Assembly (NCBI GenBank): GCA_035533875.1
Contig: DATLSZ010000038.1
Coordinates: 355-64,354 of the forward strand
Direction of reading: 5' to 3'
From: Candidatus Acidiferrales bacterium
Lineage (GTDB): Bacteria > Patescibacteriota > Microgenomatia > Levybacterales > UBA12049
DNA length: 64,000 nucleotides
Shown here: piece by piece, positions 219 through 31,056 of the stretch
How the letters are laid out: every line of letters starts with the position of its first letter
Numbering within the stretch: position 1 is the stretch's first letter
Program-made: the position numbers and the translations under genes
Notes under the pieces: generated by a model
What the model was told of the DNA's origin: nothing
Seen by the model: only the letters and a program-made list of their open reading frames with translations
Database searches by the model: none

Positions 219-2984
219 ATGTTAGGGTTACTCAACAAAGTTTTCGATTCCAATAAGCGGGAAATAAACGCGCTCCAGCCGCTCGTTGATAAGATCAATG
301 CCGAAGAAGATACGGTCAAGAAATTAAAAGACAAAGACTTTCCCAAAAAGACACAGGAATTCCGGGACCGTATCAAAGACGGAGAAAAATTGATGGATGT
401 TTTGCCGGAAGCATTTGCTCTGGCTCGTGAAGCATCCCGCAGGGCTATTGGTCTGCGGCAGTTTGACCAACAAATGATGGGAGGAATAGTCCTAGCGCAA
501 GGAAAAATTGCCGAGCAAAAAACAGGTGAAGGAAAGACGCTGACCGCTGTTTCGGCATTGTATCTTCACAGTTTGCTGGGCAAAGGTGCTCATTTGGTAA
601 CGGTCAATGATTATTTGGCCAGGCGTGATGCTGGCTGGATGGGACCGGTTTTTAATTTATTGGGAGTTTCGGTTGCCGCTATGATCAATGATCAATCATT
701 TATCTACGATCCGGAGTTTGTCAATAAAGAGGCAAATGATTACCGCCTGACGCATCTCAAACCAATATCCCGCAAAGAAGCATACGATGCCGATGTGACA
801 TACGGGATCAATTCTGAGTTCGGATTTGACTATCTCCGTGATAATATGGCACAAGACATGACCAACGTCGTTCAGCGCGGCTACTATTATGCGATTGTCG
901 ATGAGGTTGACTCAGTTCTCATTGATGAAGCCCGGACGCCGCATATTATTTCAGCACCCGACGAATCACCTTCACAACGGTATTATGAATACGCCAAAGT
1001 CGTTGATAAGTTATCGCCTGATACGGATTATAAAATTGATGAGAAGTTCCGTACTGCTCATCTGACCGATCATGGAATCGGCAAAGTTGAGAAGCTCTAC
1101 GGTATCAAAGATATCTATGAGAAGGATTTTGACACTGTCTATCATTTGGAAGCCGCATTGAAAGCGCGTGCGCTCTTCCATCGTGAAAAAGATTATATTG
1201 TCAAAGATAATCAAGTGGTGTTGGTCGATGAGTTTACCGGAAGACTACTTGAGGGTCGTCGTCTGTCCGAAGGCATTCATCAGGCAATTGAAGCAAAAGA
1301 AGGCGTTCCGATCCAGCGTGAATCAAAAACACTCGCAACGGTTTCTCTACAGAATTATTTCCGTATGTATGAGAAATTGGCTGGCATGACCGGTACTGCT
1401 GTGACAGAAGCAGAGGAGTTCCGGAAGATTTATAATCTGGATGTTGTTGTGGTACCGACATACCGTCCGGTTCAGCGTATTGATCATGCGGATGCAGTAT
1501 ATAAATCCGGACGTGCGAAATACACAGCTGTCGCGAATTCTATCGAGGAAGCGCATAAAAAAGGTCAGCCGGTTCTTGTCGGTACAACTTCAATTGATAA
1601 GAATGAAATTGTTGCAGAACTGCTTCGCCGCCGCAAAATCAAGCATGAAGTCCTGAACGCAAAGAACCATTTGCGGGAAGCGGAAATTATCGCTAATGCC
1701 GGGAAGAAGGGTGCGGTGACTGTCGCAACCAACATGGCTGGCCGGGGAGTTGATATTGTTCTTGGCGGATCGCTTGACGTGGGCGCAACTGATGCAGAAA
1801 AGAAGCAGTGGCAGAAAGAGCATGACGAAGTGTTGAAATTAGGTGGATTATATGTTGTCGGTACCGAGCGTCATGAATCTCGGCGTATTGATAATCAGCT
1901 GCGGGGTCGGTCCGGCCGGCAGGGTGATCCGGGCGCGTCACGATTTTTTGTCGCACTGGACGATGAAATCATGCGGCTCTTCGGCGGAGACAGGATAGCA
2001 GGGATGATGACACGATTTAATATGCCTGAGGACGTGCCTCTCGAACATGCACTTGTGACCAAATCCATCGAGAACGCGCAGGTAAAAGTTGAGAGTTTCA
2101 ATTTCGATTCTCGCAAACATTTAGTTGAGTATGATGATGTGCTGAATAAGCAGCGGGAAATTATCTATGGACGTCGCCGTAAGATTCTAGAAAATACGCT
2201 TGATGAAAAGAGTACGCTTAAGGAACTTATTCGTGAGAAAATTCATGATGCCGTGTCAAGTTTGGTCGAGCTTGCGGTTGCCAATCAAGTAGCAACGACA
2301 GATTCGGTAAATGACGATATCAGTGACGCGTTCAACACGATTATTCCTTTTGATGAGGCATCCAAGTCGCAACTGGGCAAACAACTTGAGCAGTATCATG
2401 ATACTGATGCGAAAATAGCATTTCTCACCAAAATCGCGGATGACATTTATGATAATCGGGAGAAACAGCTTGGTATACGTCTTATGCGGGAGATTGAAAA
2501 ATATATTATGCTGTCAGTCATCGACAATCTCTGGACCAACCACCTCGATGCCATAGATAATCTGCGCCAGGGGATTGGTCTGCGTGGGTATGCGCAGCGT
2601 GATCCATTGGTCGAGTATAAGAATGAGGCGTTCAGGATGTTTGAGCAGCTCGTCTGGGCAATTGATGATGAGATAGTACATAGGATCTACAAAGTTCAGG
2701 TGCAGCAGCCGGCAGCAGGTTCAGGACCTACAGGTGAAACACATACCCATGAAGACGGTAGTGTTCATGAAGGCCCGGCACATCCGGAAGCAGCAGCTCC
2801 AGCTCCCAAACCTCGAAAAATAGTCACCAATACACCACAGAGTGAAATTTCGGACGATGGGAAGAAAAAAAGCCGTCCTCAAGAGGACTCCCTCGCCTCA
2901 AAGAGGCTCGGTCGTAACGATCCCTGCTGGTGCGGATCTGGGAAAAAGTGGAAGAAATGCCACTATCCGCAAATGCCTGCTTAA
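219..2984 (+). CDS. secA: Preprotein translocase ATPase SecA
   Basis: 921 aa. DEAD-like motor motifs (MMGGIVLAQGKIAEQKTGEGKT, IVDEVDSVLIDEARTP, TNMAGRGVDI) and a C-terminal SEC-C zinc motif CWCGSGKKWKKCH. Confidence 0.97.
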   Translation: MLGLLNKVFDSNKREINALQPLVDKINAEEDTVKKLKDKDFPKKTQEFRDRIKDGEKLMDVLPEAFALAREASRRAIGLRQFDQQMMGGIVLAQGKIAEQKTGEGKTLTAVSALYLHSLLGKGAHLVTVNDYLARRDAGWMGPVFNLLGVSVAAMINDQSFIYDPEFVNKEANDYRLTHLKPISRKEAYDADVTYGINSEFGFDYLRDNMAQDMTNVVQRGYYYAIVDEVDSVLIDEARTPHIISAPDESPSQRYYEYAKVVDKLSPDTDYKIDEKFRTAHLTDHGIGKVEKLYGIKDIYEKDFDTVYHLEAALKARALFHREKDYIVKDNQVVLVDEFTGRLLEGRRLSEGIHQAIEAKEGVPIQRESKTLATVSLQNYFRMYEKLAGMTGTAVTEAEEFRKIYNLDVVVVPTYRPVQRIDHADAVYKSGRAKYTAVANSIEEAHKKGQPVLVGTTSIDKNEIVAELLRRRKIKHEVLNAKNHLREAEIIANAGKKGAVTVATNMAGRGVDIVLGGSLDVGATDAEKKQWQKEHDEVLKLGGLYVVGTERHESRRIDNQLRGRSGRQGDPGASRFFVALDDEIMRLFGGDRIAGMMTRFNMPEDVPLEHALVTKSIENAQVKVESFNFDSRKHLVEYDDVLNKQREIIYGRRRKILENTLDEKSTLKELIREKIHDAVSSLVELAVANQVATTDSVNDDISDAFNTIIPFDEASKSQLGKQLEQYHDTDAKIAFLTKIADDIYDNREKQLGIRLMREIEKYIMLSVIDNLWTNHLDAIDNLRQGIGLRGYAQRDPLVEYKNEAFRMFEQLVWAIDDEIVHRIYKVQVQQPAAGSGPTGETHTHEDGSVHEGPAHPEAAAPAPKPRKIVTNTPQSEISDDGKKKSRPQEDSLASKRLGRNDPCWCGSGKKWKKCHYPQMPA

Positions 2985-2994
2985 GACTTCTTTT

Positions 2995-4656
2995 TTAGTT
3001 TGGTAGTTTATAATTCTTAACTGCAGAGATCATCGGGTCGCTAGGAGACATATTGAATCCGCATCTATATCCTTGTTCATTCGCGTTTAAATAGTTCCAA
3101 TAGACAACTCCTGATGCTCCACCGTTCGTACCGGTAGTGCTCAGCTCCATATTTGTCTTATTTATCAGCCAGGTTTTCCGGGCAGCAAGACTAAAGCCAG
3201 AGTGGTTTGCAGAAGTATCCGCAGTACCTGGATTTGGTGTGTTGGATGTGCAGCCTGAACCCCCGCTTACACCGACTTCATCACTGATGAATGGTTTGTT
3301 GAGATTCTTGGCCGCTTGCTTAACTTGTGCAAAATCTCCTGAGATTGTTTGTCCACCACCCCAGTCCCAAGAATAGTCGTGGAAATCAAGAATATCCAAT
3401 TTACTGAAAAGCGCTTGGTAGTCAGCTGCTCCGCCCATGTCGGAGACATCAGCTGGTGCAATGCTGATGAGCTGTTTTGCACCGGCAGCCTTGATCAGTG
3501 TATCCGCGCCGTTTATGTATGCTTGGGCTGTCGAAAGCGGTATACCTTGACCTACCACCGTAGCACCACCTTCACCATTGCCGCTATGAAATGGTTCGTT
3601 ACCGATTTCCCATATCGCAACGGTAGGATTGTCGGCGAGTGGTGTTACCAGCTGTTTAACCCAGTTCGCGTAATTGCTGCCTGATTGATAAGAGGATTGA
3701 TAGTAGGAGAGGGTTTTGCCACTGCCTTGCTGACCATTGCCTGAACCATTCAGGTCGCTGCAATTGCTATTGTCATCACTCAAGCCGATAATAAGATGCT
3801 GATGATATTTTGTCGCCTCATTGACGATACTCTCAATGTAGGAGACGCCTCCTGGATTGTTCTGAACCGCAAAGATACGGGCCATACCATTTGCAGGCAA
3901 GTTGGAAAAGTACGTGTCCATCTCTGCTGTTGTCCAATTGTTGCCGCTCCAACATTGTCCGATTATACCGTTGGGGTTAAAACCTATGAACCGAAACGGT
4001 TTGCCATTGAGCATCAATTGTGTCCCGGATGCCGTTATAAATCCTGAGTTGGAACTCGGCGGTTGCGAATTGGGGTTTGGTTGTCCAAAGATAGTAGGTG
4101 TAGGATTACCACCGTGCGCTGATGAGGGAGTACCGGATATATTTCCACCACCGCCCCCTGCACCTGCAGAGGGAGCAGCGGCGGAAGGTGCTGCAGAAGG
4201 TGAAGTGTTAGAACTGCAGGGAGTTAGTGAAGGAAGCTGAATACCTAATTTTTGGAAGAGAAATTGGAGTAATTGCCAGAGTAATTGAAAAAACTGCTGG
4301 ATACTTCCCCCATTCACCGAGTGATGTCTCTTGCCATGATAATGCATTGAGTATACAGTTCCGGTATTTTGCGAAGAGAGAGAAGGCTGAGAAGAAGAAC
4401 AAGGAAGCGTGGAAGTGGGAGATTGCGCGTCGGAAGGCGCAGCAGAAGGGTTGGGTTGGGAGCTACTGGGAGTGCCGGAAGAGATACTGGAGGGAGCAGA
4501 GCTGATAGGATTTGTTGTGTTACCGGTAACAGAAGGTTGAGTCTTACAAGAACCCAGACAATGAGGGGAAGGAATAGGAATAGTACTTTGAGCAAAAACA
4601 GGAACACAGGTAAGGATAGAGAAAACGAACAAGGAAACGAGCAGAAAATATTTCAT
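2995..4656 (-). CDS. Secreted glycoside hydrolase, GH5-like (mannanase/cellulase fold), with an N-terminal Cys/His/hydrophobic-helix module
   Basis: Signal peptide MKYFLLVSLFVFSILTCVPVFA, Ser/Pro-rich linkers and a clan GH-A acid/base motif IWEIGNEP. Confidence 0.75.
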   Translation of the reverse strand: MKYFLLVSLFVFSILTCVPVFAQSTIPIPSPHCLGSCKTQPSVTGNTTNPISSAPSSISSGTPSSSQPNPSAAPSDAQSPTSTLPCSSSQPSLSSQNTGTVYSMHYHGKRHHSVNGGSIQQFFQLLWQLLQFLFQKLGIQLPSLTPCSSNTSPSAAPSAAAPSAGAGGGGGNISGTPSSAHGGNPTPTIFGQPNPNSQPPSSNSGFITASGTQLMLNGKPFRFIGFNPNGIIGQCWSGNNWTTAEMDTYFSNLPANGMARIFAVQNNPGGVSYIESIVNEATKYHQHLIIGLSDDNSNCSDLNGSGNGQQGSGKTLSYYQSSYQSGSNYANWVKQLVTPLADNPTVAIWEIGNEPFHSGNGEGGATVVGQGIPLSTAQAYINGADTLIKAAGAKQLISIAPADVSDMGGAADYQALFSKLDILDFHDYSWDWGGGQTISGDFAQVKQAAKNLNKPFISDEVGVSGGSGCTSNTPNPGTADTSANHSGFSLAARKTWLINKTNMELSTTGTNGGASGVVYWNYLNANEQGYRCGFNMSPSDPMISAVKNYKLPN

Positions 4657-4770
4657 TAAAATAGATACAATCTCAGATTAAAATATTATGCTGGAGGTGT
4701 CAAGATAAGATAAATCATTTAACGGACATTTACTAGTACTTAGCTCTAATTTATTAGTCGTAATAGTTAT

Positions 4771-4845
4771 AAACATTACTTATTTGTGTGGTTCCCTATA
4801 TTGATGACAGCTCAAGAAATGCCACTATTCACAACTAGGGTAAAA
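4771..4845 (+). repeat. secA-3'-end-like repeat, copy 1 (core GATGACAGCTCAAGAAATGCCACTAT at 4803-4828)
   Basis: The 26-nt core is identical to 6227-6252. Reads LKKCHYSQLG* in the frame equivalent to the secA tail WKKCHYPQMPA*. Confidence 0.8.
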
Positions 4846-4849
4846 GAGG

Positions 4850-6097
4850 TTAGTTAGTAGGTACGCTTCCACACCACCATCCGCCTTTCGGTAACATGAT
4901 TGCTGGACACATTGTTCCGGGTTTGCATATAGGCTTTGGGGTGCAGGTTGGTTTTGGCTGCGGAGGGCACCAGCCGCCTACAGGTTCTGCAATCATACAT
5001 CGTGGCGTAGCATCCAGACATTTAGGTCTCGGCATACATGATGGCGCCGGCGAAGTAGAGGTAGATGGACACCACCCGCCACGTGGCTCCGCAGGGCACA
5101 TGATTCCTAATTTTGAACCCGGATAACACTGAGGAGGCTTTGGAATACACGATGGAATAGGTCCGCAGACTGGTTGATTTATGGAGCTAGATGCTTTTGC
5201 ATTTTGTTTTATTGCATTTGAGACCTGCTGGAAAATACCGGTAAGTTGATCGGCTGTTGGCGCATAAAAGAATGCACCCCCGGTGTCCGCTGCTATTTTT
5301 TTAAGAGAATTAAAATTAGCATTCTTTCCGGGTGTCCCAACCCCAACAGTAAAGAATGTCATTGCTGATGTTTTATAAGCATTTATAGCTGCTTGAAGTG
5401 CTGCTTGTTTTCCTTGAGATGTGTCTAATGCCTGTGGTGGTTGCATAAGTTCAGTCCAATTTGCTTCTCCATCAGTTATAACTATTGCTACTTTATTATT
5501 TTCGCTCGCGGCATCTTGTATCTCTTCTCCTTTAGCTACATCGATTCCGCATTGGGTACAAGTGCGGTATTCCAGATGTCCTGCAGCTTTTTTGACAACA
5601 GATTTCAACATGGAATAATTTTTTGTTAACTTTTGATCTAATGTTGCTGCTCGTCCGAAAGTTACCAAACCGGCCTTACTACTTTTATCAATTGAAATTA
5701 AGTCTATGAAATTATTCATCGCTGTTACTGCTGCAGCCATTTTCGTTTGGGAGCCGGATTTGCCATGCATACTATCTGAAATATCAAGAACAAAGAGAAT
5801 GTCGGCGGAGCCGGAAAGACATATGGGTTTTGGTTTGGGTATCGGAACACAGGTACCTCCGGTATCCGGAATGCTGCCATTGATATTGCATTCATATCCT
5901 ACCGGACAAAGAGACGTATTGGTAAGTCCACAAGCTTGAGTCATTGGCGCTGCTTCTTGTTTTATTTGCTGCTGTTGGTTTGAGGCAAGAAGCGTAATTG
6001 GCAAACTCACCGCAAGTAGGAAGAGGACAATTAATGTAGCATGCGTACCATTACTAACACTAGAGAAATAGTGCTTTATAAATAGTTTTATCCTCAT
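4850..6097 (-). CDS. Membrane-anchored/secreted von Willebrand factor A domain protein with a Cys/Pro-rich C-terminal repeat region
   Basis: MIDAS motif in ILFVLDISDSMHG. N-terminal hydrophobic anchor. C-terminal GGWCP repeats. Start moved to ATG at 6097 (MRIKLF...); the ORF track extends to 6154. Confidence 0.8.
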   Translation of the reverse strand: MRIKLFIKHYFSSVSNGTHATLIVLFLLAVSLPITLLASNQQQQIKQEAAPMTQACGLTNTSLCPVGYECNINGSIPDTGGTCVPIPKPKPICLSGSADILFVLDISDSMHGKSGSQTKMAAAVTAMNNFIDLISIDKSSKAGLVTFGRAATLDQKLTKNYSMLKSVVKKAAGHLEYRTCTQCGIDVAKGEEIQDAASENNKVAIVITDGEANWTELMQPPQALDTSQGKQAALQAAINAYKTSAMTFFTVGVGTPGKNANFNSLKKIAADTGGAFFYAPTADQLTGIFQQVSNAIKQNAKASSSINQPVCGPIPSCIPKPPQCYPGSKLGIMCPAEPRGGWCPSTSTSPAPSCMPRPKCLDATPRCMIAEPVGGWCPPQPKPTCTPKPICKPGTMCPAIMLPKGGWWCGSVPTN

Positions 6098-6190
6098 AAA
6101 AATGAATGAAAAAGACTCTAATTCTAACTTACGAGTATTCAAAGTTACTGTCAAGTATTAAAGTATAAATTTTGATGCTGTAATAATACA

Positions 6191-6265
6191 ACAAAAATGT
6201 TATAAGTTTATGATGTGCCTTATTTGGATGACAGCTCAAGAAATGCCACTATCCTCAGATAGGTT
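6191..6265 (+). repeat. secA-3'-end-like repeat, copy 2 (core at 6227-6252)
   Basis: 17 nt AAGAAATGCCACTATCC (6238-6254) is identical to secA 2952-2968. Reads LKKCHYPQIG* in the secA-equivalent frame. Confidence 0.8.
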
Positions 6266-6412
6266 GATATATTGATCTAATCAGCTATTTCAAGTCATTC
6301 TTTATACTGTATTAAGATTAGTCAAATTGACCCAGTACCCCAAACGTTCGTATCTTGACTGCTCTGTAAGAATTGATTACGCTAAATAATAGATATACAA
6401 ATAGTCATACCT

Positions 6413-8320
6413 GTGAAATATTTATTATTGCTACCACTTACTCTGATTTCATTATTTGCGAATTTCTCTTTTGCCTATGCCCAAACATCTGTTTCTCCGT
6501 CAGTTTTTTATTGTGTTGGTAATAATCCTCAACCTCCTTGTGTTACTATTGCCCCAACGCAATCAACAGTAAATAGTAGTCCTTCAGTCTCCCCAGCTTC
6601 GAGTATAGGCGGTACTATCAATCCTGTTTCCGGCATAGTAAGCCCTTCCGTTTCAATTTCAGTGACCCCCAGCACAGGAACAGGTCCCAATATCCCAGGA
6701 GGAGTATGTACTAATCTTAGTCAACTTTTAAATACGCTCGTTCCTATACAAACCAGCACCAATGCAAAAATCCATATCAAATGTGAACCAGCAAATAGTG
6801 GCGGCGGTAGTGGCAATGGTGGTGGTAATCCCAACAATGGATTAATAAGTAAATTTATAACATTACTCGTGCAACTTATTATGCAGTTGTTTCAATTATG
6901 TGGTATGCAACCTCCAACCGCTGGCACACCAACAATATCAGGAACACCATCTATCTCCCCAGCTTCATCAGTAAGCTCAACACCTTCCTCAGGTATTCCA
7001 TCAAGTGTTGTAGCTACGCCAACTGTTTTTTCAGTATCTCCATCAACTGGTACTAACACTCCCCCTACAGGTAATAGTACTCTGAAAATAGGCAATAACG
7101 CTCCACCTGCTGGCACCAATGCTGTGGTAGATTTCCGTAAAAATCTATCAGTTCCGGCACTGAATGTCTACTCGATCGGGGACACTATTTCAGAATTTGG
7201 TTATCCTAACAACAATATTGCAAATGCCACTTGGAGAAGTACGCTAGCCAAGCTCGGACCATTGGCGTGGCGTCTCGCTCTACGTATGAACGGCAATAGC
7301 GTAGCAGCTGGTGCAGGTGGTGGCAATGGTGACGGAACTGCCTACGTCAAAGATATTAGGGCTATGAACGGCGTACCCGTTGTCATTGCTGCTGGCAAGA
7401 CTGGAGATTACGATATTGACCCTAACATGAGTGTACAGTTGGTTCACTACTTTAACGATGGTGGTGGACGAAATGGCGGTCCAGTTAAAATATGGATAAT
7501 CGGTAATGAGCCTGACAATGGAAATTCGGGCGGCTACATTGGTGCTTTAAACGCTACGACGAAAGCCATGAAGCAAGCTGATCCAAGTATTCAGATTTCC
7601 GCTCCGGCTGCTTCACATTTTGATGATGGTCTTATGGGTGCAGCTAATAATACTGCCGGACAGTATATTAATTACATGAGTTATCATGCCTATACAGGTG
7701 GGGATGGACAAGGCGTGTACTCGACACCGGAATTTCTGACCGAGGCACAGCATGTCAAGAATAGCTACGGTAAAACACCTGCACTCGAAGAGTTCAACTG
7801 GAACTTTAGATGTGCAGGAGGAAATGGATATAGTGACTGGGAAGGTGGCGTGTACATTGCTAGTGTCATCGGCAACTCTCTCGCAGGGGGTGCTGGTCAC
7901 GCCTACATGTACGCTGATTCCGGCGGCTGCGGTACCCTATATAATGGTGGCGCACCTATGCCAGCATATTACGGCTTAGGTATCTGGACGGGTATGAATG
8001 GTCAGTTCGACCGCTTCGGCAGTCAGCTCGTTAACTCTAGTGTGGGTGGTGTTGATGTGACAAACGGTGGTAAGTCAGGACTATCTCAGCAAGTAGAACT
8101 GTTCGCGATGAACAATGGTAAGATCGTAGCGATAAACAAGAACGGTGGCGCTGAGAACATAACGATAGGTCTTGGCGGTCTGACAACTGGTTCATACACG
8201 GTGTGGCAAACCGACACCACCGGACCTATCAAAGAAGTCCGAGGTAGCACAAACTTCACAGGTTCAAAGATTACCATAACATTGCCTGGCCATACGGTAT
8301 CCAGTATCGACGTACAGTAA
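6413..8320 (+). CDS. Secreted glycoside hydrolase, clan GH-A (GH5/GH30/GH39-like), with an N-terminal Cys/His/hydrophobic-helix module
   Basis: GTG start. Signal peptide, Ser/Pro-rich linkers, IWIIGNEPDNG motif and a C-terminal beta-sandwich-like tail (ITITLPGHTVSSIDVQ). Confidence 0.7.
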   Translation: MKYLLLLPLTLISLFANFSFAYAQTSVSPSVFYCVGNNPQPPCVTIAPTQSTVNSSPSVSPASSIGGTINPVSGIVSPSVSISVTPSTGTGPNIPGGVCTNLSQLLNTLVPIQTSTNAKIHIKCEPANSGGGSGNGGGNPNNGLISKFITLLVQLIMQLFQLCGMQPPTAGTPTISGTPSISPASSVSSTPSSGIPSSVVATPTVFSVSPSTGTNTPPTGNSTLKIGNNAPPAGTNAVVDFRKNLSVPALNVYSIGDTISEFGYPNNNIANATWRSTLAKLGPLAWRLALRMNGNSVAAGAGGGNGDGTAYVKDIRAMNGVPVVIAAGKTGDYDIDPNMSVQLVHYFNDGGGRNGGPVKIWIIGNEPDNGNSGGYIGALNATTKAMKQADPSIQISAPAASHFDDGLMGAANNTAGQYINYMSYHAYTGGDGQGVYSTPEFLTEAQHVKNSYGKTPALEEFNWNFRCAGGNGYSDWEGGVYIASVIGNSLAGGAGHAYMYADSGGCGTLYNGGAPMPAYYGLGIWTGMNGQFDRFGSQLVNSSVGGVDVTNGGKSGLSQQVELFAMNNGKIVAINKNGGAENITIGLGGLTTGSYTVWQTDTTGPIKEVRGSTNFTGSKITITLPGHTVSSIDVQ

Positions 8321-8387
8321 GTACTCCTTAAGATATGTAGTACTTCCTGGTTGAACGCTAAGGATACTATCGGGCAGGAAGTGCAAA

Positions 8388-8420
8388 GACAGTTCAAAAA
8401 ATGCCACGATCCGAATTACC
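8388..8420 (+). repeat. secA-3'-end-like repeat, copy 3 (divergent)
   Basis: GACAGTTCAAAAAATGCCACGATCC matches the copy 1/2 core at 22 of 25 positions. Reads QFKKCHDPNY in the secA-equivalent frame. Confidence 0.6.
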
Positions 8421-8468
8421 ATAAACATGCTTCTTCTGTGGAATTACAAAAATTTTCCGTTGTTGAGT

Positions 8469-13265: not shown

Positions 13266-14123
13266 ATGATACAAGCAGTTATTATGGATGTTGACGGGGT
13301 GATTGTCGGTAAGAAATCCGGTATCAATTTCCCATTGCCGAATGTTTTAGTCATTAAAGCATTACGGAGACTTAATGAAAAGGGAATTCCTGTTATTCTT
13401 TGTACTGCTAAATTCAATCACGCGGTCAAAGAAATTATTATACAAGCAGAACTCCGTAATCCGCATATCACAGACGGCGGTGCGCTAATTATTGATCCGC
13501 TTAATGAAAAAATAGTCAAGAAACATGTTTTCCCAAAAGACCTTGCACGAACAATTGTCGAGCAAGTTCTATCTCAAAATTTTTATACGGAAGTATACGG
13601 TGTCAACGACTATTATTTACAGAAAGATCATATTGGCAAGTTTACTGAAAAGAGGATCAAGATCTTGCAAAAAGAGCATACAGCTGTTGACTCACTGCTT
13701 GATAAAATTGATGAGATAGAAGTGATAAAGATAATAAACTTTGCACATACTTCAGAAGACAGACTGCAAATAAATAAACTTTTAGATCAGTTTAGCGAAA
13801 AAATTCATGTCATATGGTCACATCACCCTGCTACTTTGCCTGCAGAAAATACCGTTATAACAATAAAAGGTGTATCAAAAAAAGATGCTGCATTGGAGGT
13901 TTTGGATTACTTAAAGATTTCTCCTAGCGAGACCTTGGGTGTTGGCGACACGATAGCGGATTGGAATTTTATGAGTCTTTGCAAATATGTCGGCGTTGTG
14001 GGAGACGCGAGTCAAGAGCTTAAAGACCTGTCTAGAACAAAAGGAGAGGGGAATTACTATTTCAGCCCATCGGTAGATGAAGATGGATTTCTAGAAATTG
14101 TTGATTACTTTAAAGATAAATAA
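13266..14123 (+). CDS. HAD-superfamily hydrolase, Cof-like (subfamily IIB)
   Basis: Motif I MDVDGVIV, cap region and motif IV GVGDTIADWNFM. Confidence 0.8.
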   Translation: MIQAVIMDVDGVIVGKKSGINFPLPNVLVIKALRRLNEKGIPVILCTAKFNHAVKEIIIQAELRNPHITDGGALIIDPLNEKIVKKHVFPKDLARTIVEQVLSQNFYTEVYGVNDYYLQKDHIGKFTEKRIKILQKEHTAVDSLLDKIDEIEVIKIINFAHTSEDRLQINKLLDQFSEKIHVIWSHHPATLPAENTVITIKGVSKKDAALEVLDYLKISPSETLGVGDTIADWNFMSLCKYVGVVGDASQELKDLSRTKGEGNYYFSPSVDEDGFLEIVDYFKDK

Positions 14124-17090: not shown

Positions 17091-17678
17091 TTATAAATTT
17101 TTGTATGCATGAGATATCCGTTGTATGACGGTGTACAGTGAGAGAATAGTGATAAAGACAAATGTTATTCCCGCAATATTTAGGGATGCAACGATAATTG
17201 CAGGAAAAAATATATAGAAAAACAAAGCAAGAAAGATGAGCACAAGTCTTTCCGGCCGCTCAATAAGTCCCACCGCAAAACTCACTTTTGGATTTGCCAG
17301 CTCTCCTCTGCTTCTTACATAACTAGTCAAATAAGCAAAAAGAAGAAACGGAGCAACTATTCCCCAACTGATAATGCCGGCAAACGCAAAGGCAGTAATA
17401 ACCAGAAAGTCTGCAACACGATCCATTGTGGAATCCAAAAATCCGCCGAATGGAGTCACTTTATGATATCTTCTTGCGACCATTCCATCCAGCATGTCAA
17501 ATCCACACCCGACAAACGCGATAAGCGAGACGATATACCAGTGATAGAGCATAAAGACAAAGAACAGGAGAGGTGGTATACTTCCTAATAGAGTGAGGGT
17601 GTTGGGTGAGACATGTGATAATCGTTTTACAACTGGAAGTAAAAATGGTTCAATTGTCGATTTTTTATTACTCAACAT
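17091..17678 (-). CDS. CDP-alcohol phosphatidyltransferase (candidate phosphatidyl/archaetidyl-inositol-phosphate synthase)
   Basis: Signature DMLDGMVARR-x8-GGFLDSTMDRVAD. Multi-pass membrane protein. Start moved to ATG at 17678. Confidence 0.8.
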   Translation of the reverse strand: MLSNKKSTIEPFLLPVVKRLSHVSPNTLTLLGSIPPLLFFVFMLYHWYIVSLIAFVGCGFDMLDGMVARRYHKVTPFGGFLDSTMDRVADFLVITAFAFAGIISWGIVAPFLLFAYLTSYVRSRGELANPKVSFAVGLIERPERLVLIFLALFFYIFFPAIIVASLNIAGITFVFITILSLYTVIQRISHAYKNL

Positions 17679-17690
17679 ATAGTGACATGA

Positions 17691-17802
17691 ATAATTTTCA
17701 ATTTTTAATTTACAATTTTCAATCAATTTTACAATGTTTCAATGTTTGAAAATTAATTCATTGATGCATTCAATGAAAATTGAGAACTGAAAATTGTAAA
17801 TT
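17691..17802. repeat. AT-rich nested palindromic element in a divergent intergenic region
   Basis: 15-nt perfect inverted repeat AATTTACAATTTTCA (17707-17721) / TGAAAATTGTAAATT (17788-17802). The 19-mer ATAATTTTCAATTTTTAAT is shared with 28357-28375. Confidence 0.75.
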
Positions 17803-17814
17803 AGTTACACATCT

Positions 17815-18486
17815 ATGAAAGGCTCGCGTTATAAAGTTGATCTTCATACACATTCTATCATATCGCAGGATGGAGGGATTACTGCTGCTCAGTATGAAAA
17901 GGTATTGCAGGCGGGAGAACTCGATTGTGTCGCGATAACCGATCACAATGAAACGAGTTTTGCTAGGATAATGCAAAAAAAGTTAGGAAACAAAATTATA
18001 GTCGGCGAAGAGATAAGCACAACAGAAGGTGAGATCATTGGTCTATATCTCACGGAAACAATTCGTGGCGGTATCAGTGTTGATGAAGCGGTTGCCAGTA
18101 TCAAGCATCAGGGTGGTCTGATTTATATTCCTCATCCATTTGAACTTTTCAGAAAAGGATTGCGTAGGAGTACAGCCGAGCGGATCTTGTCGGATATTGA
18201 TATTATTGAAGTCTTCAATGGGCGAGGCCGTTTCCGCGGAAAACCTATTTTTGCCGAACAATTCGCCTCAAAAAATAACATTCTCCAAGCTGCCAGCAGT
18301 GATGCTCACGGGGTAAAAGGTCTTGGACATACATGCAGCATGCTTACTGAATTTCCGACCCAAAAGAAGCTCAAAGAATTATTGGCAAACGCCATTCTTG
18401 ATAAAACGTATGCACCCTTCTATACATTTTTTTATCCCATGCTGAATAGAATTAAGAATAGTGTTGTTTTATTGGGAGAAAATTGA
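17815..18486 (+). CDS. PHP-domain metal-dependent phosphoesterase
   Basis: VDLHTHSIISQDG N-terminal His motif plus later IPHPF and DAHG motifs. Confidence 0.75.
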   Translation: MKGSRYKVDLHTHSIISQDGGITAAQYEKVLQAGELDCVAITDHNETSFARIMQKKLGNKIIVGEEISTTEGEIIGLYLTETIRGGISVDEAVASIKHQGGLIYIPHPFELFRKGLRRSTAERILSDIDIIEVFNGRGRFRGKPIFAEQFASKNNILQAASSDAHGVKGLGHTCSMLTEFPTQKKLKELLANAILDKTYAPFYTFFYPMLNRIKNSVVLLGEN

Positions 18487-18487
18487 A

Positions 18488-19402
18488 ATGCTTTATAGGG
18501 ATGATGTTTTATATGTTATTAATCCACATGCAAACGAGGGTCACGCCTTAGGCCTTTGGAATAAATCCAGACAAAAATTTAATATTCTTCCAAAAGATCC
18601 GGTTGATATTACCGCTATTTCACTGGAGGATGTTATTGCTGAGAGGAAACCGAAATTGATCGTCATTGCCGGCGGTGACGGGACGATAAATGCAGTAGCT
18701 CGTATCGTTTTCGGGATGTCTCAGAAACCTTTACTTGCAGTTCTTCCTTTTGGTTTTGGCAATGCGTTATCTTACTGTCTCGGTGTTGAGACAATGAAAA
18801 AGGCGGTAGATGTTATCGAGAAAAGGGAGCATACGGTTACCGTTGACTTACTCCGGACAGATATTCCGGATCATTCCGTTGGTGTTTTTAGTGTGAGTGT
18901 GGGATTTGATGCCCGAATCGTATTCAACCGTCAGCATTTTCGGTACATAGGATTCCGTTCTTACATATTGTCTGCTATACGCAGCTTGGTCTTTCATCCG
19001 GAACAGGAGATAACATTTACCATTGATAGAAAAGTGACGCTGTCTGCGCGAGCATCATCTTTGGTTATTGCGAATTGTCCTGTTATCGGGCAAAATTATA
19101 TAGTCTCACCAAACGCGAAGCTGAATGACGGACTGTTGGACTGCACGCTATTTTCAACGAAATACGATTATATTACCAATCTCAGGTTCAGAGGATTCAA
19201 ACATCCACTCTATTCCGAACTCGGAAAGGTGAGATTTAAAGCATCGCATCTCAAAATTGAAGGGGAGCCGTATGTGCAGATTGATGGCGATCCGGTGGTA
19301 CAGCGGGAAGGTATTGAAATTGAAGTCGTGCCTTCTCAGTTGACTTTTTTACGGAATGAAGACAAGAAGATTAATCAGATGTATCTGCCATTTGTGACGT
19401 AA
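18488..19402 (+). CDS. Diacylglycerol-kinase-family lipid kinase (YegS/BmrU-like)
   Basis: LIVIAGGDGTINAV catalytic-domain motif. Start moved to ATG at 18488, 2 nt after the PHP stop. Confidence 0.75.
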   Translation: MLYRDDVLYVINPHANEGHALGLWNKSRQKFNILPKDPVDITAISLEDVIAERKPKLIVIAGGDGTINAVARIVFGMSQKPLLAVLPFGFGNALSYCLGVETMKKAVDVIEKREHTVTVDLLRTDIPDHSVGVFSVSVGFDARIVFNRQHFRYIGFRSYILSAIRSLVFHPEQEITFTIDRKVTLSARASSLVIANCPVIGQNYIVSPNAKLNDGLLDCTLFSTKYDYITNLRFRGFKHPLYSELGKVRFKASHLKIEGEPYVQIDGDPVVQREGIEIEVVPSQLTFLRNEDKKINQMYLPFVT

Positions 19403-20077: not shown

Positions 20078-22009
20078 TTATTTTTTTGTGAGCTGGTTGA
20101 GAAGGCCGTTGAGGTTTACTGTCGCAACTCCGATGACTTTGTCTGCACCGCCATAATAAACAAAGAGTGTCTCCCCGATTACCAGTGCACCGCAAGGGAA
20201 GACAACATTTGGCACTTCACCTTCGACTTCATATTGCTCAACAGGTTCAAAAATTGGATCATCTGTACGGACAAGTATTTTCGTCGGATCATTTTTATCC
20301 AAAAGCATCGCTCCGACTTTATATTTAAAGCCTGGTTCCGATACTCCATGATACAATAGTAGAAAGCCTTTTTCTGTTTCTATGGGAGGTGCTGCAATAC
20401 CGATCTTCACATTATCCCATTTATCAGGCCTTGGCTGCGCGATCGCTTTACCTCCTAAGAATTTATTACCACCGTAGTCCATTTTATCCGATACATCAAC
20501 CCAGATATCGTGTCCCAGCCGGTGAAACACAATGTATTTTCCTTCGTTACTTTTTATGATACAGGCATCTTTATCATCTGCATTAGGAAGTGAAATGAGC
20601 GTGGGTTCTTCCCAGTTCCACTGCCTTCGTAAAAAGTTTTCAACACCGATCCATGTTATTGCAACACGCGGAGGATTCTCTCCATCATATGCCGTATAGG
20701 TCATATAAAAACGGTCATCAAATTCCGTGATGCGAGGGTCTTCACATCCGGCATTGCCTATGGATTTTATTCTTCTTTCAAAATTTGCTCGTGGTGTGTA
20801 AATTGGATAATCGAGGTTCTCATCAATATGAAATCCGTCTTTACTTACAGCAAGTCCAAACACAGACATCCCGTCACGAGACTGAGCTCGGTAGATAATG
20901 TGTACCTTACCGTCTCCGTAGATAGCAGCGGGGTTGAAGACCGCCTGCGCCTGCCATTCCCATTCAATTATTGGTTTGAGAATTGGATTGCCAGCAAAGC
21001 GGGTAAGTTTGTCATTGTCTGTCGGAGCAGAGATGATCGGTGTTGATGCTTTTGGTTTGATATCATCAAGAAGTTCATTTATCTTGCAAGTTGCCAGTGC
21101 AACTCGTGTATCAGCAGCACCGTAATACACATAGAGCTCATCATCTTTTACAAGACCGCCGGAGGGGAAAATTACATTTGGCACATCTCCACGCAGCTCA
21201 TATTCTGCCTGCGGAGTAATGAGCGAATAATCGGTTCTTCCCAAAATATGACGCGGGTGATCAAGATCCAGCAGTACCGCTTCTATGCCAAATTTTTTTT
21301 CATTTGAAAGATAGTCGGTGATATAGGAATACAGGACAAGCCAACCGTCTTTTGTCTTGATTGGTGCCGATCCAAGTTCTACCTGATCACGGATATCGCG
21401 GAGAAGATTGATAACATGCGTGCCGGAGTTTTCATACAATTCATCCCAATAGTATGGAGACCATATCTCATCTTCACGATCAAAATACGCGACAGCTATT
21501 TTTGCTGGTGGCAGATCGGTATTCATTGTGATAAGAGCACCCATCTTCCCTTTGACCAGATCAGGAAAAAGAGCCATGGCTTTTGCATTGAAGGTACTGA
21601 CCGGATGCTTGAAAAACGTTTTAAAATCCTCTGTGATAGCAACGGCTGTTTTGATCCCATACGCGCTAAACGGAAAGACAGAAAGTGCAGTATAAAAAAT
21701 ATAAAATTTCCCATTGAAAAAAGTAATACGCGGATCCTCAACTCCATATTCTTCCCAGTCTTCTGTTGGACCAAAAAGCAATTTGTGATCTCCGAAGTGG
21801 ATGCCATCTGTGCTTGACGCATACCCAACCGATGAAACCCGCATAGTGATGCCATTCTGTTTTTTTTCAGAAGATAAAGCTCGGTAGACCATGTGGTATA
21901 TTCCGTCGTTGTATGCAACGCAGCCATTGAATGCACCATCATGCTCCCATTCAAGATCAGGGTTCGGATTTAGTATTGGATTTTCGGGGTAACGTTGTAA
22001 GGTTATCAT
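20078..22009 (-). CDS. Tandem double GH130-like glycoside phosphorylase/glycosidase
   Basis: Two copies of the GH130 pattern (NP..NP...WE....FN......DG.YHM.YRA, EDPRIT, VYYGGAD) in one 643-aa protein. Confidence 0.8.
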   Translation of the reverse strand: MITLQRYPENPILNPNPDLEWEHDGAFNGCVAYNDGIYHMVYRALSSEKKQNGITMRVSSVGYASSTDGIHFGDHKLLFGPTEDWEEYGVEDPRITFFNGKFYIFYTALSVFPFSAYGIKTAVAITEDFKTFFKHPVSTFNAKAMALFPDLVKGKMGALITMNTDLPPAKIAVAYFDREDEIWSPYYWDELYENSGTHVINLLRDIRDQVELGSAPIKTKDGWLVLYSYITDYLSNEKKFGIEAVLLDLDHPRHILGRTDYSLITPQAEYELRGDVPNVIFPSGGLVKDDELYVYYGAADTRVALATCKINELLDDIKPKASTPIISAPTDNDKLTRFAGNPILKPIIEWEWQAQAVFNPAAIYGDGKVHIIYRAQSRDGMSVFGLAVSKDGFHIDENLDYPIYTPRANFERRIKSIGNAGCEDPRITEFDDRFYMTYTAYDGENPPRVAITWIGVENFLRRQWNWEEPTLISLPNADDKDACIIKSNEGKYIVFHRLGHDIWVDVSDKMDYGGNKFLGGKAIAQPRPDKWDNVKIGIAAPPIETEKGFLLLYHGVSEPGFKYKVGAMLLDKNDPTKILVRTDDPIFEPVEQYEVEGEVPNVVFPCGALVIGETLFVYYGGADKVIGVATVNLNGLLNQLTKK

Positions 22010-22094
22010 TTCAGAACACTCAGATCGCCGTGTAAATTAGTTATATCAGATTATCAGTTTTTCTGAAAGACAGAATACTTGAGATTTCTGAAAA

Positions 22095-23918
22095 TTAGTT
22101 AAGGACTGGACTGGTAACTCGACGGAGTTTCGGTTCCTGATGGTGTTTCATCTGATAGAGGAATTTATCCAAATCTGCTTCGGCAGCATTTACAAAAGTA
22201 TCTCCGCCTCCATAATATACCAACAGTTTGTTATCTTTTAATACTGCTCCACACGGGTAAACTACACCGGCTTTAAACCCGCCATTTTCATAATGCTCTT
22301 CAGGAGATAAGATAGGGTTATTCGTTCTATAGAGAACTTTTGTCGGATCTTTCTTATCAAGCAACATGGCCCCAATTTTATATCTACCCGGATCTTGATA
22401 ACCTACCGATTGATAGATAAGTAGCCATCCGTCTTTTGTTTTCATTGGAGGAGCGCCGGCTCCAACCTTTTTACTGTCCCAATGTTTCTTTCGAGGTGGA
22501 ATGAAGTAGTGACCTGTGAGAAATTTATCATCAGCAAATTTCAGATCATCGAGAGTATCCATAAGGATATTGGGATAAACTCGGTGAAGCATGACATATT
22601 TGCCATTAATTTTTTCAGGGAATAGAACAGCACTTTTATTTACCATACCTGGAGCTGAAATTAATTTCGGTCTTTCCCATTTATCCCACTGGCGGTTCAA
22701 AAATTGATCAACAGGAATAGAAGTAAGTGCGACTCGTGGTGGATTTGCGCCATCAAATGCAACATAGGTCATAAAAATTTTGTCTTCAACTTTGGTAATA
22801 CGTGGATCCTCAATGCCGCCATATCCACCGCCGGATGCGAAATGATCGGCAAATGTTTTAAAGACTGCGCCACCCGGTGTCTCAAAAGGTTCTCTTGGAA
22901 TATAAATCGGCTCTTCGGATTTCTCATCAATCGTCAGACCGTCTTTGCTTGTCGCATATCCAAGAACAGACAAGTCACTATCTCCAAGTGCCCGGTAGAC
23001 AAAATGTACTTTTCCGTCTTCAAATAAAGCGGCGCTGTTGAATGTCGCGCGAGATTCCCATTTGTGATTGGGATCAGGGGAAATTATCGGGTTTTGATGA
23101 TGCTTTTTCAAAAGGATTTGGATGTTTTTGTCTTTAATGCCGTTTGGAGGAATCGGACAAGATACGGCATACACGGTACTATCATTGACGATCCAGTAGA
23201 GAATGCATTTATCGTCAAACATCTCAATACCGAGTGGTTTTATGTTTTCTTTTCTGAGATTATCGGGAATTTCCCATAGAGGTTTATCAAGCCGCCATAA
23301 CAGTCTGGTCGGATCTTTTGTATCAAACGCTGCTGCGCCCACTGCATAGTAAGCATTATCATTTTTGGTTTTTTTCGCGTAATAGAACACAAGTATGTGG
23401 TCTTTGAGATTGAATACTTTCGCGACTTCCAATGAAGCATTATCAAAATTATCTTCAAGACTTTCAAGTACCGGATTGTCAAAAGCTCTCCAATCAGTGA
23501 GCTGTGAGGAGTAGGCAAGCTTTATTGTATGTTCACCGAAGTATAACACATAACGGTTCTTGAATTGAAAATCAGGGACAATGGACCCTACCTCGTTGAC
23601 GCCTTCTACCTTTCCGAGTTTTTTCCAACGGAGCGATTCTTTGGATTCAGCGACATTGAACTTACTTCCGCTGCGTCCGTTAACTTTATATGTCGAGATG
23701 AATCGATCTTTTTGTTTGCTGACAGTGAACCGCTGCCAGTCGTACTTCGGTTCTTCCCGACCTTTGGGATCGGTGACTATGATATATTTTGTTGAGCCAT
23801 TAAACGCAAACCCATCACTGCCGGAAATCCGTTTGAAATAAAATTTGTTACCTTTATCGTAGGAGAAATAGAGGACAATATCTCCATCAATATATGCAGT
23901 ACCAACAAGTTTAATCAT
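22095..23918 (-). CDS. GH130-like glycoside phosphorylase/glycosidase with a divergent propeller-like N-terminal half
   Basis: The C-terminal half has WESRATFNSAALFEDGKVHFVYRA, EDPRIT and VYYGGGD. The N-terminal 270 aa is weakly similar. Confidence 0.75.
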   Translation of the reverse strand: MIKLVGTAYIDGDIVLYFSYDKGNKFYFKRISGSDGFAFNGSTKYIIVTDPKGREEPKYDWQRFTVSKQKDRFISTYKVNGRSGSKFNVAESKESLRWKKLGKVEGVNEVGSIVPDFQFKNRYVLYFGEHTIKLAYSSQLTDWRAFDNPVLESLEDNFDNASLEVAKVFNLKDHILVFYYAKKTKNDNAYYAVGAAAFDTKDPTRLLWRLDKPLWEIPDNLRKENIKPLGIEMFDDKCILYWIVNDSTVYAVSCPIPPNGIKDKNIQILLKKHHQNPIISPDPNHKWESRATFNSAALFEDGKVHFVYRALGDSDLSVLGYATSKDGLTIDEKSEEPIYIPREPFETPGGAVFKTFADHFASGGGYGGIEDPRITKVEDKIFMTYVAFDGANPPRVALTSIPVDQFLNRQWDKWERPKLISAPGMVNKSAVLFPEKINGKYVMLHRVYPNILMDTLDDLKFADDKFLTGHYFIPPRKKHWDSKKVGAGAPPMKTKDGWLLIYQSVGYQDPGRYKIGAMLLDKKDPTKVLYRTNNPILSPEEHYENGGFKAGVVYPCGAVLKDNKLLVYYGGGDTFVNAAEADLDKFLYQMKHHQEPKLRRVTSPVLN

Positions 23919-24757: not shown

Positions 24758-25867
24758 TTAAGCTTTTACTTTGAGCGTGTCGCCTTTGTAGGTAAGTTTG
24801 AGTGGTTCAATAATAACTTGTTTTTCCCCTTTTTCGACAGTGCCTGCATGCCAGGCTTTTAGGCTGTTCTTCGTTGCTGCATCAATCGTTTTTTTTACAT
24901 CTCTTTTATTGATGAATAACGCAAATCCTGCTCCCATATTGAAGTTGCCGTACATTTCCTGATCATCATTGCCCGAGTTTTTTTGGATAAAAGGAAAAAT
25001 CGGTTGAGGATTTGGGACAGTATGCATTACATAGGTGAAAATTTTGTTTGCCCGCATGAGCTTTCTCCATCCATGACCGGTGATATTTGTCATATAATGG
25101 ATTTCAACTCCTGCATCAAAAGTATCACGAATGAGTTGAGCATAGATGTGTGTTGGTGCAAGTATTGATTCTCCGTAACTCGTACCGTCGGGTAGAAGTG
25201 TAGCATATCCTTTTGGCAGCTGAGACGCTATAGTCCGTGCAAGCGTCAGGCCGTTTGCGTGAATGCCACTGCTTTCAATTAAGATTATTGCATCTCCAGC
25301 ATCTAATTTTTCTCCCAACGTGAGATGTTTTTTGGGTTTTATTACTCCAATCGCGCTGCCGGCAAGGTCAATGGTACCAGGATCGACGATGTCTTTTAGT
25401 GTCGGTGTTTCGCCGCCGCCCCATACGGCGCCAGCAAGATCGCACGCTTTTGCCCATCCTTCAACCAAATCTATCGCACGTTCTTCATCGGAGAACCAAT
25501 CACCGCTTCCGATAGCAAAATACGCGTTGACCACTTGTGGATCAGCTCCCACAACGATAAGGTCATTCACGATCATAGCGACTGTATCCTGTGCAATCGT
25601 ATCATAGTGGGTTTTCCCGGTGAATTTTCTCGTCTCGTCAGCGACGAGATTTTTTGTTCCCAAGCCTTCGATGACAAATGCTCGGTACTCGTCTTTTTCT
25701 TCCCAAACATAGGCAGATTCACCTCTGCTGTCTGCGATTTCTTTTGCGCCAAATCGATTAAAATTTGCTGCGGTTGCTTTTGCCCGCAATTGTGCAAGTA
25801 CTTTTATGGGATCCATTGCTTCATAGTTGACACCGGATTCTTTGTAGGATATTTTTTGTTTTTTCAT
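24758..25867 (-). CDS. purM: Phosphoribosylformylglycinamidine cyclo-ligase (AIR synthase)
   Basis: YKESGVN, EGLGTK, VAMIVNDLIVVGADP, GGETP, SSGIHANGLTLAR and NITGHGW are collinear with PurM. Confidence 0.85.
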   Translation of the reverse strand: MKKQKISYKESGVNYEAMDPIKVLAQLRAKATAANFNRFGAKEIADSRGESAYVWEEKDEYRAFVIEGLGTKNLVADETRKFTGKTHYDTIAQDTVAMIVNDLIVVGADPQVVNAYFAIGSGDWFSDEERAIDLVEGWAKACDLAGAVWGGGETPTLKDIVDPGTIDLAGSAIGVIKPKKHLTLGEKLDAGDAIILIESSGIHANGLTLARTIASQLPKGYATLLPDGTSYGESILAPTHIYAQLIRDTFDAGVEIHYMTNITGHGWRKLMRANKIFTYVMHTVPNPQPIFPFIQKNSGNDDQEMYGNFNMGAGFALFINKRDVKKTIDAATKNSLKAWHAGTVEKGEKQVIIEPLKLTYKGDTLKVKA

Positions 25868-25911
25868 TTTATTGAGCCTATTGTATCAAGATTGTTTATA
25901 ATTAGAAAGTC

Positions 25912-26766: not shown

Positions 26767-26768
26767 GA

Positions 26769-27743: not shown

Positions 27744-27750
27744 AAACTAT

Positions 27751-27826: not shown

Positions 27827-27833
27827 GGGAAAT

Positions 27834-29566: not shown

Positions 29567-29576
29567 AATTACTATT

Positions 29577-31049: not shown

Positions 31050-31056
31050 AATTATT

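Follow-up and report, generated by a model that had tools for sequence, protein, structure and literature searches.

The window analyzed here is a stretch of 64,000 nt from an uncultured soil bacterium of the Microgenomates (candidate phyla radiation, CPR), Levyibacteria-like as judged from its SecA relatives. It carries a complete secA, an essential gene of protein secretion, followed by three unrelated genes, each of which is followed in turn by a same-orientation copy of the last secA codons. The secA product contains the Pfam domains SecA_DEAD, P-loop_SecA, SecA_SW, SecA_PP_bind and SEC-C, and its C-terminus reads W-K-K-C-H-Y-P-Q-M-P-A-stop. The species has also been assembled independently from other samples: L001 and L002 show the same sequence as the window, with all three copies, and L003 extends as far as copy 1 and agrees with the window. 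The features of the locus are as follows, the site names being those of the interpretation developed below.

219–2984, + strand: secA, complete, 921 residues, with a normal SEC-C zinc-finger tail, ...CWCGSGKKWKKCHYPQMPA* (open reading frame list, Pfam)
2918–2984, + strand: putative attB-type site in the final secA codons, its arms tabulated about the centre
2918–2951, + strand: B arm of the attB-type site, holding a ZD-like TGCGGATCT (C-G-S codons)
2952–2953, + strand: inferred crossover dinucleotide AA (first Lys codon of K-K-C-H)
2954–2963, + strand: RD-like GAAATGCCAC (K-C-H codons) in the attB-type site
2982–2984, + strand: stop codon of the present secA tail
2995–4656, − strand: cargo of cassette 1, a secreted GH5 cellulase-family protein (PF00150, E 1e-10)
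4783–4843, + strand: putative attR-type site 1 (copy 1), with P arm 4783–4813 (TTTGTGTGGTTCCCTATATTGATGACAGCTC) and centre AA 4814–4815
4850–6154, − strand: cargo of cassette 2, a secreted or membrane protein with a von Willebrand A (VWA) domain
6207–6280, + strand: putative attR-type site 2 (copy 2), with P arm 6207–6237 and centre AA 6238–6239
6413–8320, + strand: cargo of cassette 3, a secreted 635-residue protein, family unassigned, no Pfam match
8362–8424, + strand: putative degenerate attR-type site 3 (copy 3), nhmmer E 0.013

The secA 17-mer that begins at the first Lys codon of K-K-C-H (AAGAAATGCCACTATCC, 2952–2968) was searched for in the 64 kb with up to three mismatches, and matched at 2952 (0 mismatches), 4814 (1), 6238 (0) and 8396 (2). 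All four matches lie on the + strand and the motif occurs nowhere else in the window. The expected number was 0.17 and at least four matches were obtained in 0 of 100 shuffles; the four-member, same-strand pattern is non-random and chance is excluded. An earlier note on this DNA had reported the secA tail codons, their coordinates and the three same-orientation copies as they were recovered here. Copies 1 and 2 also share, as it had described, a core: the 26-mer GATGACAGCTCAAGAAATGCCACTAT stands at 4803 and again, unchanged, at 6227 (expected 0.00) and belongs to a repeat of 57 nt with 81% identity (4783–4839 versus 6207–6263). An in-frame TGA(TGA) is present upstream of both, and copy 3 is identical at 22 of 25 positions. 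A copy does come after each gene in order; however, the GH5 and VWA genes are read from the minus strand, so copies 1 and 2 lie 5′ of those two genes. A composition scan detected no break in GC content or skew at the cassettes.

The copies preserve the organization of a gene end. The displaced tail of site 1 reads KKCHYSQLG with a TAA stop codon at 4841–4843, and that of site 2 reads KKCHYPQIG with a TGA stop codon at 6265–6267, followed by native secA 3′ flank to ~6280. Copy 2 and the live secA end of the relative L087 share 25 identical nucleotides (CACTATCCTCAGATAGGTTGATATA), stop codon and four flanking bases included, and are 88% identical over 43 nt. The SecA protein of L087 (P0002, 86.7% identity) is among the two most similar to that of the window and pairs with it in a neighbour-joining tree. 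The tail of site 3 (AAAAAATGCCACGATCCGAATTACCATAA), centred on AA 8396–8397, reads KKCH(D)PN-LP* after a 1-nt deletion. The earlier note was right that this copy is the most diverged, but it is not merely diverged, because restoring the one deleted T gives a real ending, KKCH(D)PNLP*. Live SecA endings in relatives include YPQIG (P0002, P0007, P0018 and P0029), YPxLG (P0003, P0005, P0006 and P0017) and YPNLP* (P0045, P0079 and others). As judged from these sequences, the window copies are displaced real secA 3′ ends with frame and stop codon kept.

The same locus was compared in a closer clade of nine contigs, retrieved via exact protein matches, whose SecA proteins are 82–85% identical to that of the window; the related loci scanned for motifs total ~1.8 Mb. 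The upstream block LepA-PKD-GroES-GroEL-MurJ-S20-SerRS-secA is kept in all nine contigs. So is, where the flank reaches that far, a downstream anchor of CDP-alcohol phosphatidyltransferase (CDP-OH_P_transf), PHP and DAG kinase genes (17091–19402 in the window). The stretch between secA and this anchor is different in every genome. The comparison of secA-downstream regions that the earlier note had called for thus revealed variable cassettes between conserved anchors. A profile built from the copies located the same type of element, ~70 nt long, downstream of secA in five relatives, with other cargo:

L089, 14210–14281: attR-type site after a minus-strand RDD gene
L090, 15148–15185: attR-type site after a + strand gene of 758 residues
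L092, 14085–14147: attR-type site after a 59-residue gene and ApbA
L102: three attR-type sites, which separate a 191-residue gene, a DUF433/DUF5615 toxin-antitoxin pair, and a pair of 192 and 736 residues
L106, 5437–5500: attR-type site after a minus-strand Amidase_2 gene

These elements read as secA endings with a stop codon, namely YPQVG*, YPQKG*, YPTVG*, YPQKSS*, KFCHYPQKA*, YPRVD* and YPQVA*. With the window included there are ten cassettes of 0.78–3.0 kb, each with one or two intact genes, which may point either way. From cassette to cassette the cargo is unrelated; in all ten it abuts the 31-nt arm described below within 14–126 nt, and it includes no pseudogenes. The serial accretion at the secA tail suggested in the earlier note, in which the old 3′ end is displaced, is supported by the real endings, the hypervariable downstream region and these five genomes, with the same site type and other cargo. 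The recombinase family at the same secA point and the decay by distance, both described below, add to this support. An orthologue with DUF6629 is common to L092 and L106 just past their differing cassettes, and is taken to mark the ancestral neighbour. No attR-type site was found within 10 kb of secA in L093 or in the 1.9 kb of downstream sequence in L087. GTDB species representatives with secA of at most 74% identity (L005–L084) contain no displaced tails within 10 kb of secA, and such tails were seen only in the 82–85% SecA clade. L005 shares a single gene with the window downstream of secA, a HAD hydrolase (13266–14123). A scan of JGI metagenomes with GACAGYTCAARAAATGYCAYKAT returned only two chance matches, inside unrelated coding genes, which indicates that the motif is not widespread.

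The other side of secA differs among genomes as well. In the source species a gene on the minus strand, whose product combines DUF5005, DUF4185 and ricin-lectin domains (L001 7974–9512, just upstream of the window start), sits between SerRS and secA, where relatives have nothing or a small open reading frame.

Concerning the cargo of the window, the stop codon of the GH5 gene lies 10 nt past the secA stop, and a signal-peptide-like N-terminus is visible. The closest homologue of its catalytic domain, 80% identical, is found in a genome with cytochrome c oxidase genes, hence non-CPR (L099–L101). In that genome the domain is part of a fusion with a ricin-type lectin domain, and its gene lies away from secA with no site beside it. 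A recent transfer of GH5 between phyla is suggested. The start of the VWA gene is uncertain (TTG at 6154, or 6142 as called in L001), and its stop codon is 6 nt past the pseudo-stop of site 1. The GH-A label that the 635-residue protein had been given amounts to a weak resemblance to GH51 arabinofuranosidases/clan GH-A (E 0.02–0.15). Secreted enzymes, of which the earlier note had spoken, are not typical of the cassettes in general: among the cargo in other genomes are an amidase, an RDD protein, ApbA and a toxin-antitoxin pair.

A large serine recombinase (LSR) occupies the position behind secA in other Microgenomates. This protein of 522 residues is encoded convergent to secA, 2–20 nt past it, in L091, L094–L096 (a Daviesbacteria genome), L097 and L098 (both GCA_964599625.1). 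It comprises Resolvase (PF00239), Recombinase (PF07508) and Zn_ribbon_recom (PF13408) domains with the catalytic motif YARVSTKEQ. In L091, whose SecA is 84% identical to that of the window, the secA ending is abnormal and longer, the LSR gene follows 6 nt further on, and it is succeeded by an HTH_17 gene, a primase gene and other genes of the element. The contigs of another secA with an extended tail (P0062) and of an LSR (P0156) are both listed at 9602 nt. LSR homologues are common in Microgenomates, and all those looked up are convergent to secA and 2–20 nt from it. The junctions with the LSR elements in L091, L094 and L097 fall at the same secA position as 2952–2953 in the window, and secA is normal there through K-K-C-H and then continues as NTRAATAGGGAACCKCA. 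The last secA codons probably serve as the attB of this Microgenomates LSR family. The earlier note had reasoned from integrative elements of the tRNA type and had proposed a search for a cognate recombinase. Replacement of the 3′ end stands, with a serine rather than a tyrosine enzyme, and the recombinase was located next to secA in other Microgenomates, not in the window.

The LSR elements at secA are longer than 10 kb (L097 1–7455; L094 85–9702; L091 14434–22841). The L097 element carries anti-phage cargo, comprising an MmeI-type restriction-modification enzyme, SMODS, DUF6602, GmrSD and a trypsin-like protease; an Amidase_3 gene is found in the L094 element and a Toprim primase in that of L091. 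All three have a DUF5659 gene and an HTH_17 gene beside the recombinase, and the HTH_17 product is a possible directionality factor.

The attachment sites of the cassettes and of the LSR elements have a common anatomy. A conserved arm of ~31 nt precedes each copy; this left arm of the cassette sites (TGTGGTTCCCTAT...) reads as the reverse complement of the junction sequence NTRAATAGGGAACCKCA. Taken outward from AA, the P-arm consensus of eight cassette sites is TGAAgTGTCATCCAaATAGGGtACCaCACAAA and the P′-arm consensus of three LSR elements is AgAAgTGcCAccTaAATAGGGAACCgCA. The two agree at 23 positions, and both have ATAGGGWACC at positions 16–25, 14 nt from the centre. Positions 2–11 and 16–31 of the P arms are conserved and 12–15 are variable, and the similarity stops at the outer edge. 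Beside unrelated cargo, in genomes ~15% apart in SecA, the P arms are roughly 85–90% alike. The 10-mer GGTTCCCTAT/ATAGGGAACC occurs in the ~1.8 Mb almost only at secA junctions, with three other matches. The attP reconstructed as TTGTGTGGTWCCCTAT-N14-AA-GAARTGCCAY-N4-ATAGGGAACC, assembled from separate half-sites, is predicted to be a near-palindrome of ~2 × 31 nt about a non-palindromic AA dinucleotide. Since the cassette sites consist of a P-type arm, AA and a displaced secA end, they fit the definition of attR and are classed here as attR-type.

Known LSR half-sites place the ZD motif at positions 16–24 in attP and 5 bp nearer the centre in attB (PMC3783163). The secA B arm contains TGYGGNTCY (C-G-S codons) as its ZD-like motif, ~6 nt inward of the P-arm position. 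In site 1 all ten positions of the ZD-like 10-mer GGTTCCCTAT match the P′ arm of the LSR elements once that arm is reverse-complemented, and in site 2 the P arm is partly decayed and the motif scores 7/10. In site 3 a ZD-like remnant, GGATACTATCG (8362–8372), is shifted by ~11 nt, and the RD-like arm GACAGTTC occupies 8388–8395. Decay of the sites thus grows with distance from secA, as had been predicted.

Two other readings of these sequences were tried and rejected. A dyad AGTGG/CCACT around AAGAAATG was considered as the attB centre, but only AA at 2952–2953 makes the P and P′ motifs symmetric. A sigma-54-like reading of the minus strand was set aside because the motif is accounted for by secA codons and the P arm.

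Among the SecA proteins P0001–P0045, the last 4–6 residues past KKCHYP vary between nearly all close relatives, and the KFCHYPQKN/G tail type is dispersed across the SecA similarity tree. Tail type and similarity of the SecA body show no correspondence, either by pairwise identity or in the neighbour-joining tree, which has short internal branches and no bootstrap. Each KFCH-tailed SecA has a KKCH-tailed protein as its nearest neighbour (for example, P0012/P0014 at 91.7% and P0009/P0013 at 90.9% identity), and pairs of KF-tailed proteins reach 88.3% identity at most. An exchange of SecA endings together with the insertions would fit the scattered tail types, and is suggestive rather than proven.

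The explanation proposed for this locus is serial insertion at the secA tail through LSR attachment sites, to which a probability of roughly 80% is assigned. DNA with a partner site would recombine at the AA of the first K-K-C-H Lys codon (2952–2953). Each insertion would provide a new ending for secA and place the incoming gene directly behind it. The previous ending would be moved downstream and fused to the incoming ~31-nt P arm, forming an attR-type hybrid, so that each event would probably swap the last 4–6 SecA residues. Because insertion at AA always takes place between secA and the earlier units, the order would reflect age. In the window, the gene of the 635-residue protein would be oldest, the VWA gene next and the GH5 gene newest, and the sites left behind would be those at 8362–8424, 6207–6280 and 4783–4843, respectively.

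A narrower proposal, given slightly less than an even chance, is that the units of one or two genes are non-autonomous cassettes, individually mobile, for which the LSR is supplied in trans. By analogy with the staphylococcal cassette chromosome (SCC), trans-mobilization would be the likeliest route for cassette movement. Three routes can be envisaged. A trans-acting LSR might exercise a relaxed site choice, as reported for the Ccr enzymes, by which cassettes flanked by att sites are excised in every combination, recombinase-less ones included (PMC11470126). Alternatively, units might hitch-hike, being picked up when an LSR element uses a distal attR for its excision or, in a variant, left behind when it uses the proximal attR. 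Finally, RecA recombination might take place across the 17–45-nt repeats. Large elements that had simply decayed would hardly leave cassettes so compact and clean or P arms so well conserved. Individual mobility is nonetheless something we infer, because no circle, empty site or shared cassette was found.

A more far-reaching possibility, offered tentatively, is that Microgenomates own an integron-like gene-cassette system driven by an LSR. Single-gene minicircles with a hybrid site, made of a P-type half-site and a mimic of the secA tail, would be inserted, excised and shuffled at the secA stop-codon region by an enzyme acting in trans, and the last residues of SecA would be rewritten at every exchange. 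Such a system would need an LSR that accepts attB × attR-type pairs or routinely uses alternative attR partners.

Several observations weigh against LSR-mediated insertion, or against its cassette form. On the side of the sites, the B′ arm has no clear ZD motif at the expected place, and the LSR elements' own P arm (expected TGTGGTWCCCTAT-N14-AA) is deduced from symmetry. The window and the five other arrays contain no attL-type junctions, only attR-type sites; secA in the arrays has a normal B′ tail from which ATAGGGAACC is absent, and attL was seen only where an LSR element is present. On the side of the enzyme, no recombinase or transposase of any kind was found in the 64-kb window, the other five arrays have no LSR or other recombinase up to 10 kb from secA, and there are no remnants of LSR-element genes in the window or the arrays. 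Neither a circular cassette form nor an empty site was found, and the same cassette was not seen in different genomes. IMG/VR, searched with two DNA patterns and the LSR protein, held no free attP or related elements, and the LSR profile retrieved only relatives at 26–27% identity. All loci compared, moreover, are metagenome assemblies. As to the chemistry, canonical LSRs do not recombine attB with attR (PMC3783163), and canonical attP × attB chemistry alone does not yield a normal tail, one or two genes and an attR.

The alternative that survives best, a real though minority prospect, is that the sites are inert scars: full LSR elements integrated repeatedly and then lost the recombinase and core by deletion or by homologous replacement from uninfected relatives. 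One cargo gene and an attR would have been kept each time, and the cassettes would not be mobile units. LSR elements of more than 10 kb with cargo do occupy the secA site, and the window without a recombinase, the lack of any cassette common to different genomes and the increasing decay of sites with distance from secA would all be expected. However, the ten cassettes have one or two intact genes each, with no pseudogene or remnant of an element core. Furthermore, secA always regains a natural-type tail and native flank, which random deletion cannot create, and the P arms are 85–90% alike near unrelated cargo, with motifs conserved and the linker variable.

Improbable by comparison is a process driven by RecA, in which circles or linear fragments with a secA-tail look-alike integrate or exchange across 17–45-nt repeats with no site-specific enzyme. 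The homology of tail and flank between live and displaced tails does extend to ~45 nt, and SecA tail types look recombined among lineages, but 17–45 nt at 80–90% identity is very short for RecA. Such a process also leaves unexplained the P-type half-site before every tail, its inverted repetition of the P′ arm at a symmetric distance, and the left homology that ends exactly at AA. A cis-acting element (operator, upstream activating site, terminator or small RNA) with a coincidental likeness to the secA tail is very unlikely: copies 1 and 2 are upstream of the minus-strand GH5 and VWA genes and the minus strand has a weak sigma-54-like TGGCA-N9-GC, but in the copies the reading frame, the stop codon and the flank past it are those of genuine secA genes, the sites of relatives follow genes of either orientation, no Rfam match or terminator-like site was found at the copies, fold z-scores are −0.84 to +0.81 (copies 1 and 2, both strands), and, outside the region behind secA, neither the remaining 55 kb of the window nor ~1.8 Mb of related loci contains the motif.

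The remainder of the window contains several features apart from the secA locus. A near-complete de novo purine pathway and a folate cluster occupy 24758–40826 (minus strand) and 43870–48953. The purine genes encode PurM, PurC, PurE, PurK, PurB, PurH, PurQ, PurL, PurD and a PurF-PurN fusion, and the folate cluster that comes after them encodes a PabB-HPPK fusion, a class IV aminotransferase, FolE, FolB and FolP. To our knowledge, CPR bacteria are usually described as being without purine and folate pathways. A nested palindrome of ~75 nt is present in three copies (27752–27826, 29577–29654 and 31057–31124) in intergenic gaps of the pur cluster. It has the form CGTCATTGCGAG...GCAATC-loop-GATTGC...CTCGCAATGACG, with predicted folds of −30 to −38 kcal/mol. 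Adjacent proteins of 643 and 607 residues with GH130 mannooligosaccharide phosphorylase domains are encoded at 20078–23918. An open reading frame at 55903–57567 (minus strand) has repeats with a 24-nt period (56966–57204) and no Pfam match, and the adjoining open reading frames of 1384 and 610 residues have no Pfam match either.

How CPR bacteria, whose genomes are very small and streamlined, come by new genes is poorly understood. The secA locus is, on the interpretation preferred here, a gene-acquisition hotspot whose exact site is defined, for whose enzyme there is a candidate family and whose past insertions can be read from the sequence. The functions that enter at secA would include surface and secreted ones, namely glycosidases, an adhesin-like VWA protein and a cell-wall amidase, and a toxin-antitoxin pair, with anti-phage systems on full elements. 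Serial insertion would also offer an explanation for the fast turnover of the extreme SecA C-terminus in this group of Microgenomates, and the junctions would supply a natural attB/attP pair, in many sequence variants, for an uncharacterised serine integrase family. Full-text literature searches turned up no paper that describes integration at the secA 3′ end.

Three classes of known systems share parts of this arrangement. Islands at tRNA and tmRNA 3′ ends are alike in that the incoming element supplies the 3′ end and the displaced ends form direct repeats that decay with age. However, they involve tyrosine integrases, RNA genes and large islands, in contrast to the serine recombinase, protein-coding tail and single-gene units proposed here. 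Integrons have compact cassettes of one or two genes with unrelated cargo, which here includes a toxin-antitoxin pair (L102). They have one recombination site per cassette, the newest cassette at the insertion point and decaying distal sites. They differ in that neither IntI nor another tyrosine recombinase is present here, no Phage_integrase-type protein being encoded in the window, and the gene beside the array is secA. Furthermore, the sites are not folded attC hairpins (z −0.84 to +0.81 for copies 1 and 2), the cargo lies in both orientations without a common promoter, and the insertion point is inside a coding sequence. Elements with serine integrases that integrate inside genes include A118/LI in comK and SPbeta in spsM, and phiC31 and Bxb1 belong to the same class of systems. 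Shared with them are the form of the attP reconstructed here, a near-palindrome of ~2 × 31 nt about a non-palindromic dinucleotide, and the place of the recombinase gene beside attP, where the LSR elements of the relatives also have a small HTH_17 gene. The ZD-like and RD-like motifs at positions 16–25 and 2–11 also correspond (PMC3783163). In contrast to these prophages, the host gene here is not disrupted and only its last residues are replaced, the attR-type sites of the window have neither attL partners nor an element, the shift of the B arm is ~6 nt rather than 5, and the B′ arm is without a clear motif.

The closest known system is SCC/SCCmec of staphylococci, in which cassettes stand at the 3′ end of rlmH (orfX) and are moved by the LSRs CcrAB/CcrC; the enterococcal cassette chromosome is a further example. 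The recombinase class is the same, and the target is in both cases the final codons of a conserved housekeeping gene that is left intact: the secA reading frame of the window is whole, SEC-C motif included, with a tail of natural type. Tandem stacking behind the target gene is also shared. As in SCC, every cassette is bounded by same-orientation att-core repeats (2952, 4814, 6238 and 8396 in the window, and likewise in five relatives). Defence cargo is likewise common to both, L097 carrying restriction-modification, SMODS and GmrSD genes. SCC cassettes without a recombinase are moved by one from another cassette (PMC11470126). The differences are that the target is secA rather than rlmH, that the host belongs to the CPR/Microgenomates, and that the units measure 0.78–3.0 kb with one or two genes as opposed to ~10–60 kb for SCC. 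Every internal site here joins a P-type arm to the displaced end of a gene, and each event would alter the C-terminus of the host protein. In an SCC region at least one cassette encodes the recombinase; none was seen in the six arrays here, either in the 64-kb window or up to 10 kb from secA in the relatives. With these distinctions, the principle of SCC, in which a serine recombinase lines up cassettes after a housekeeping gene, would hold at the secA locus too, in a distant phylum and with units as small as those of integrons.

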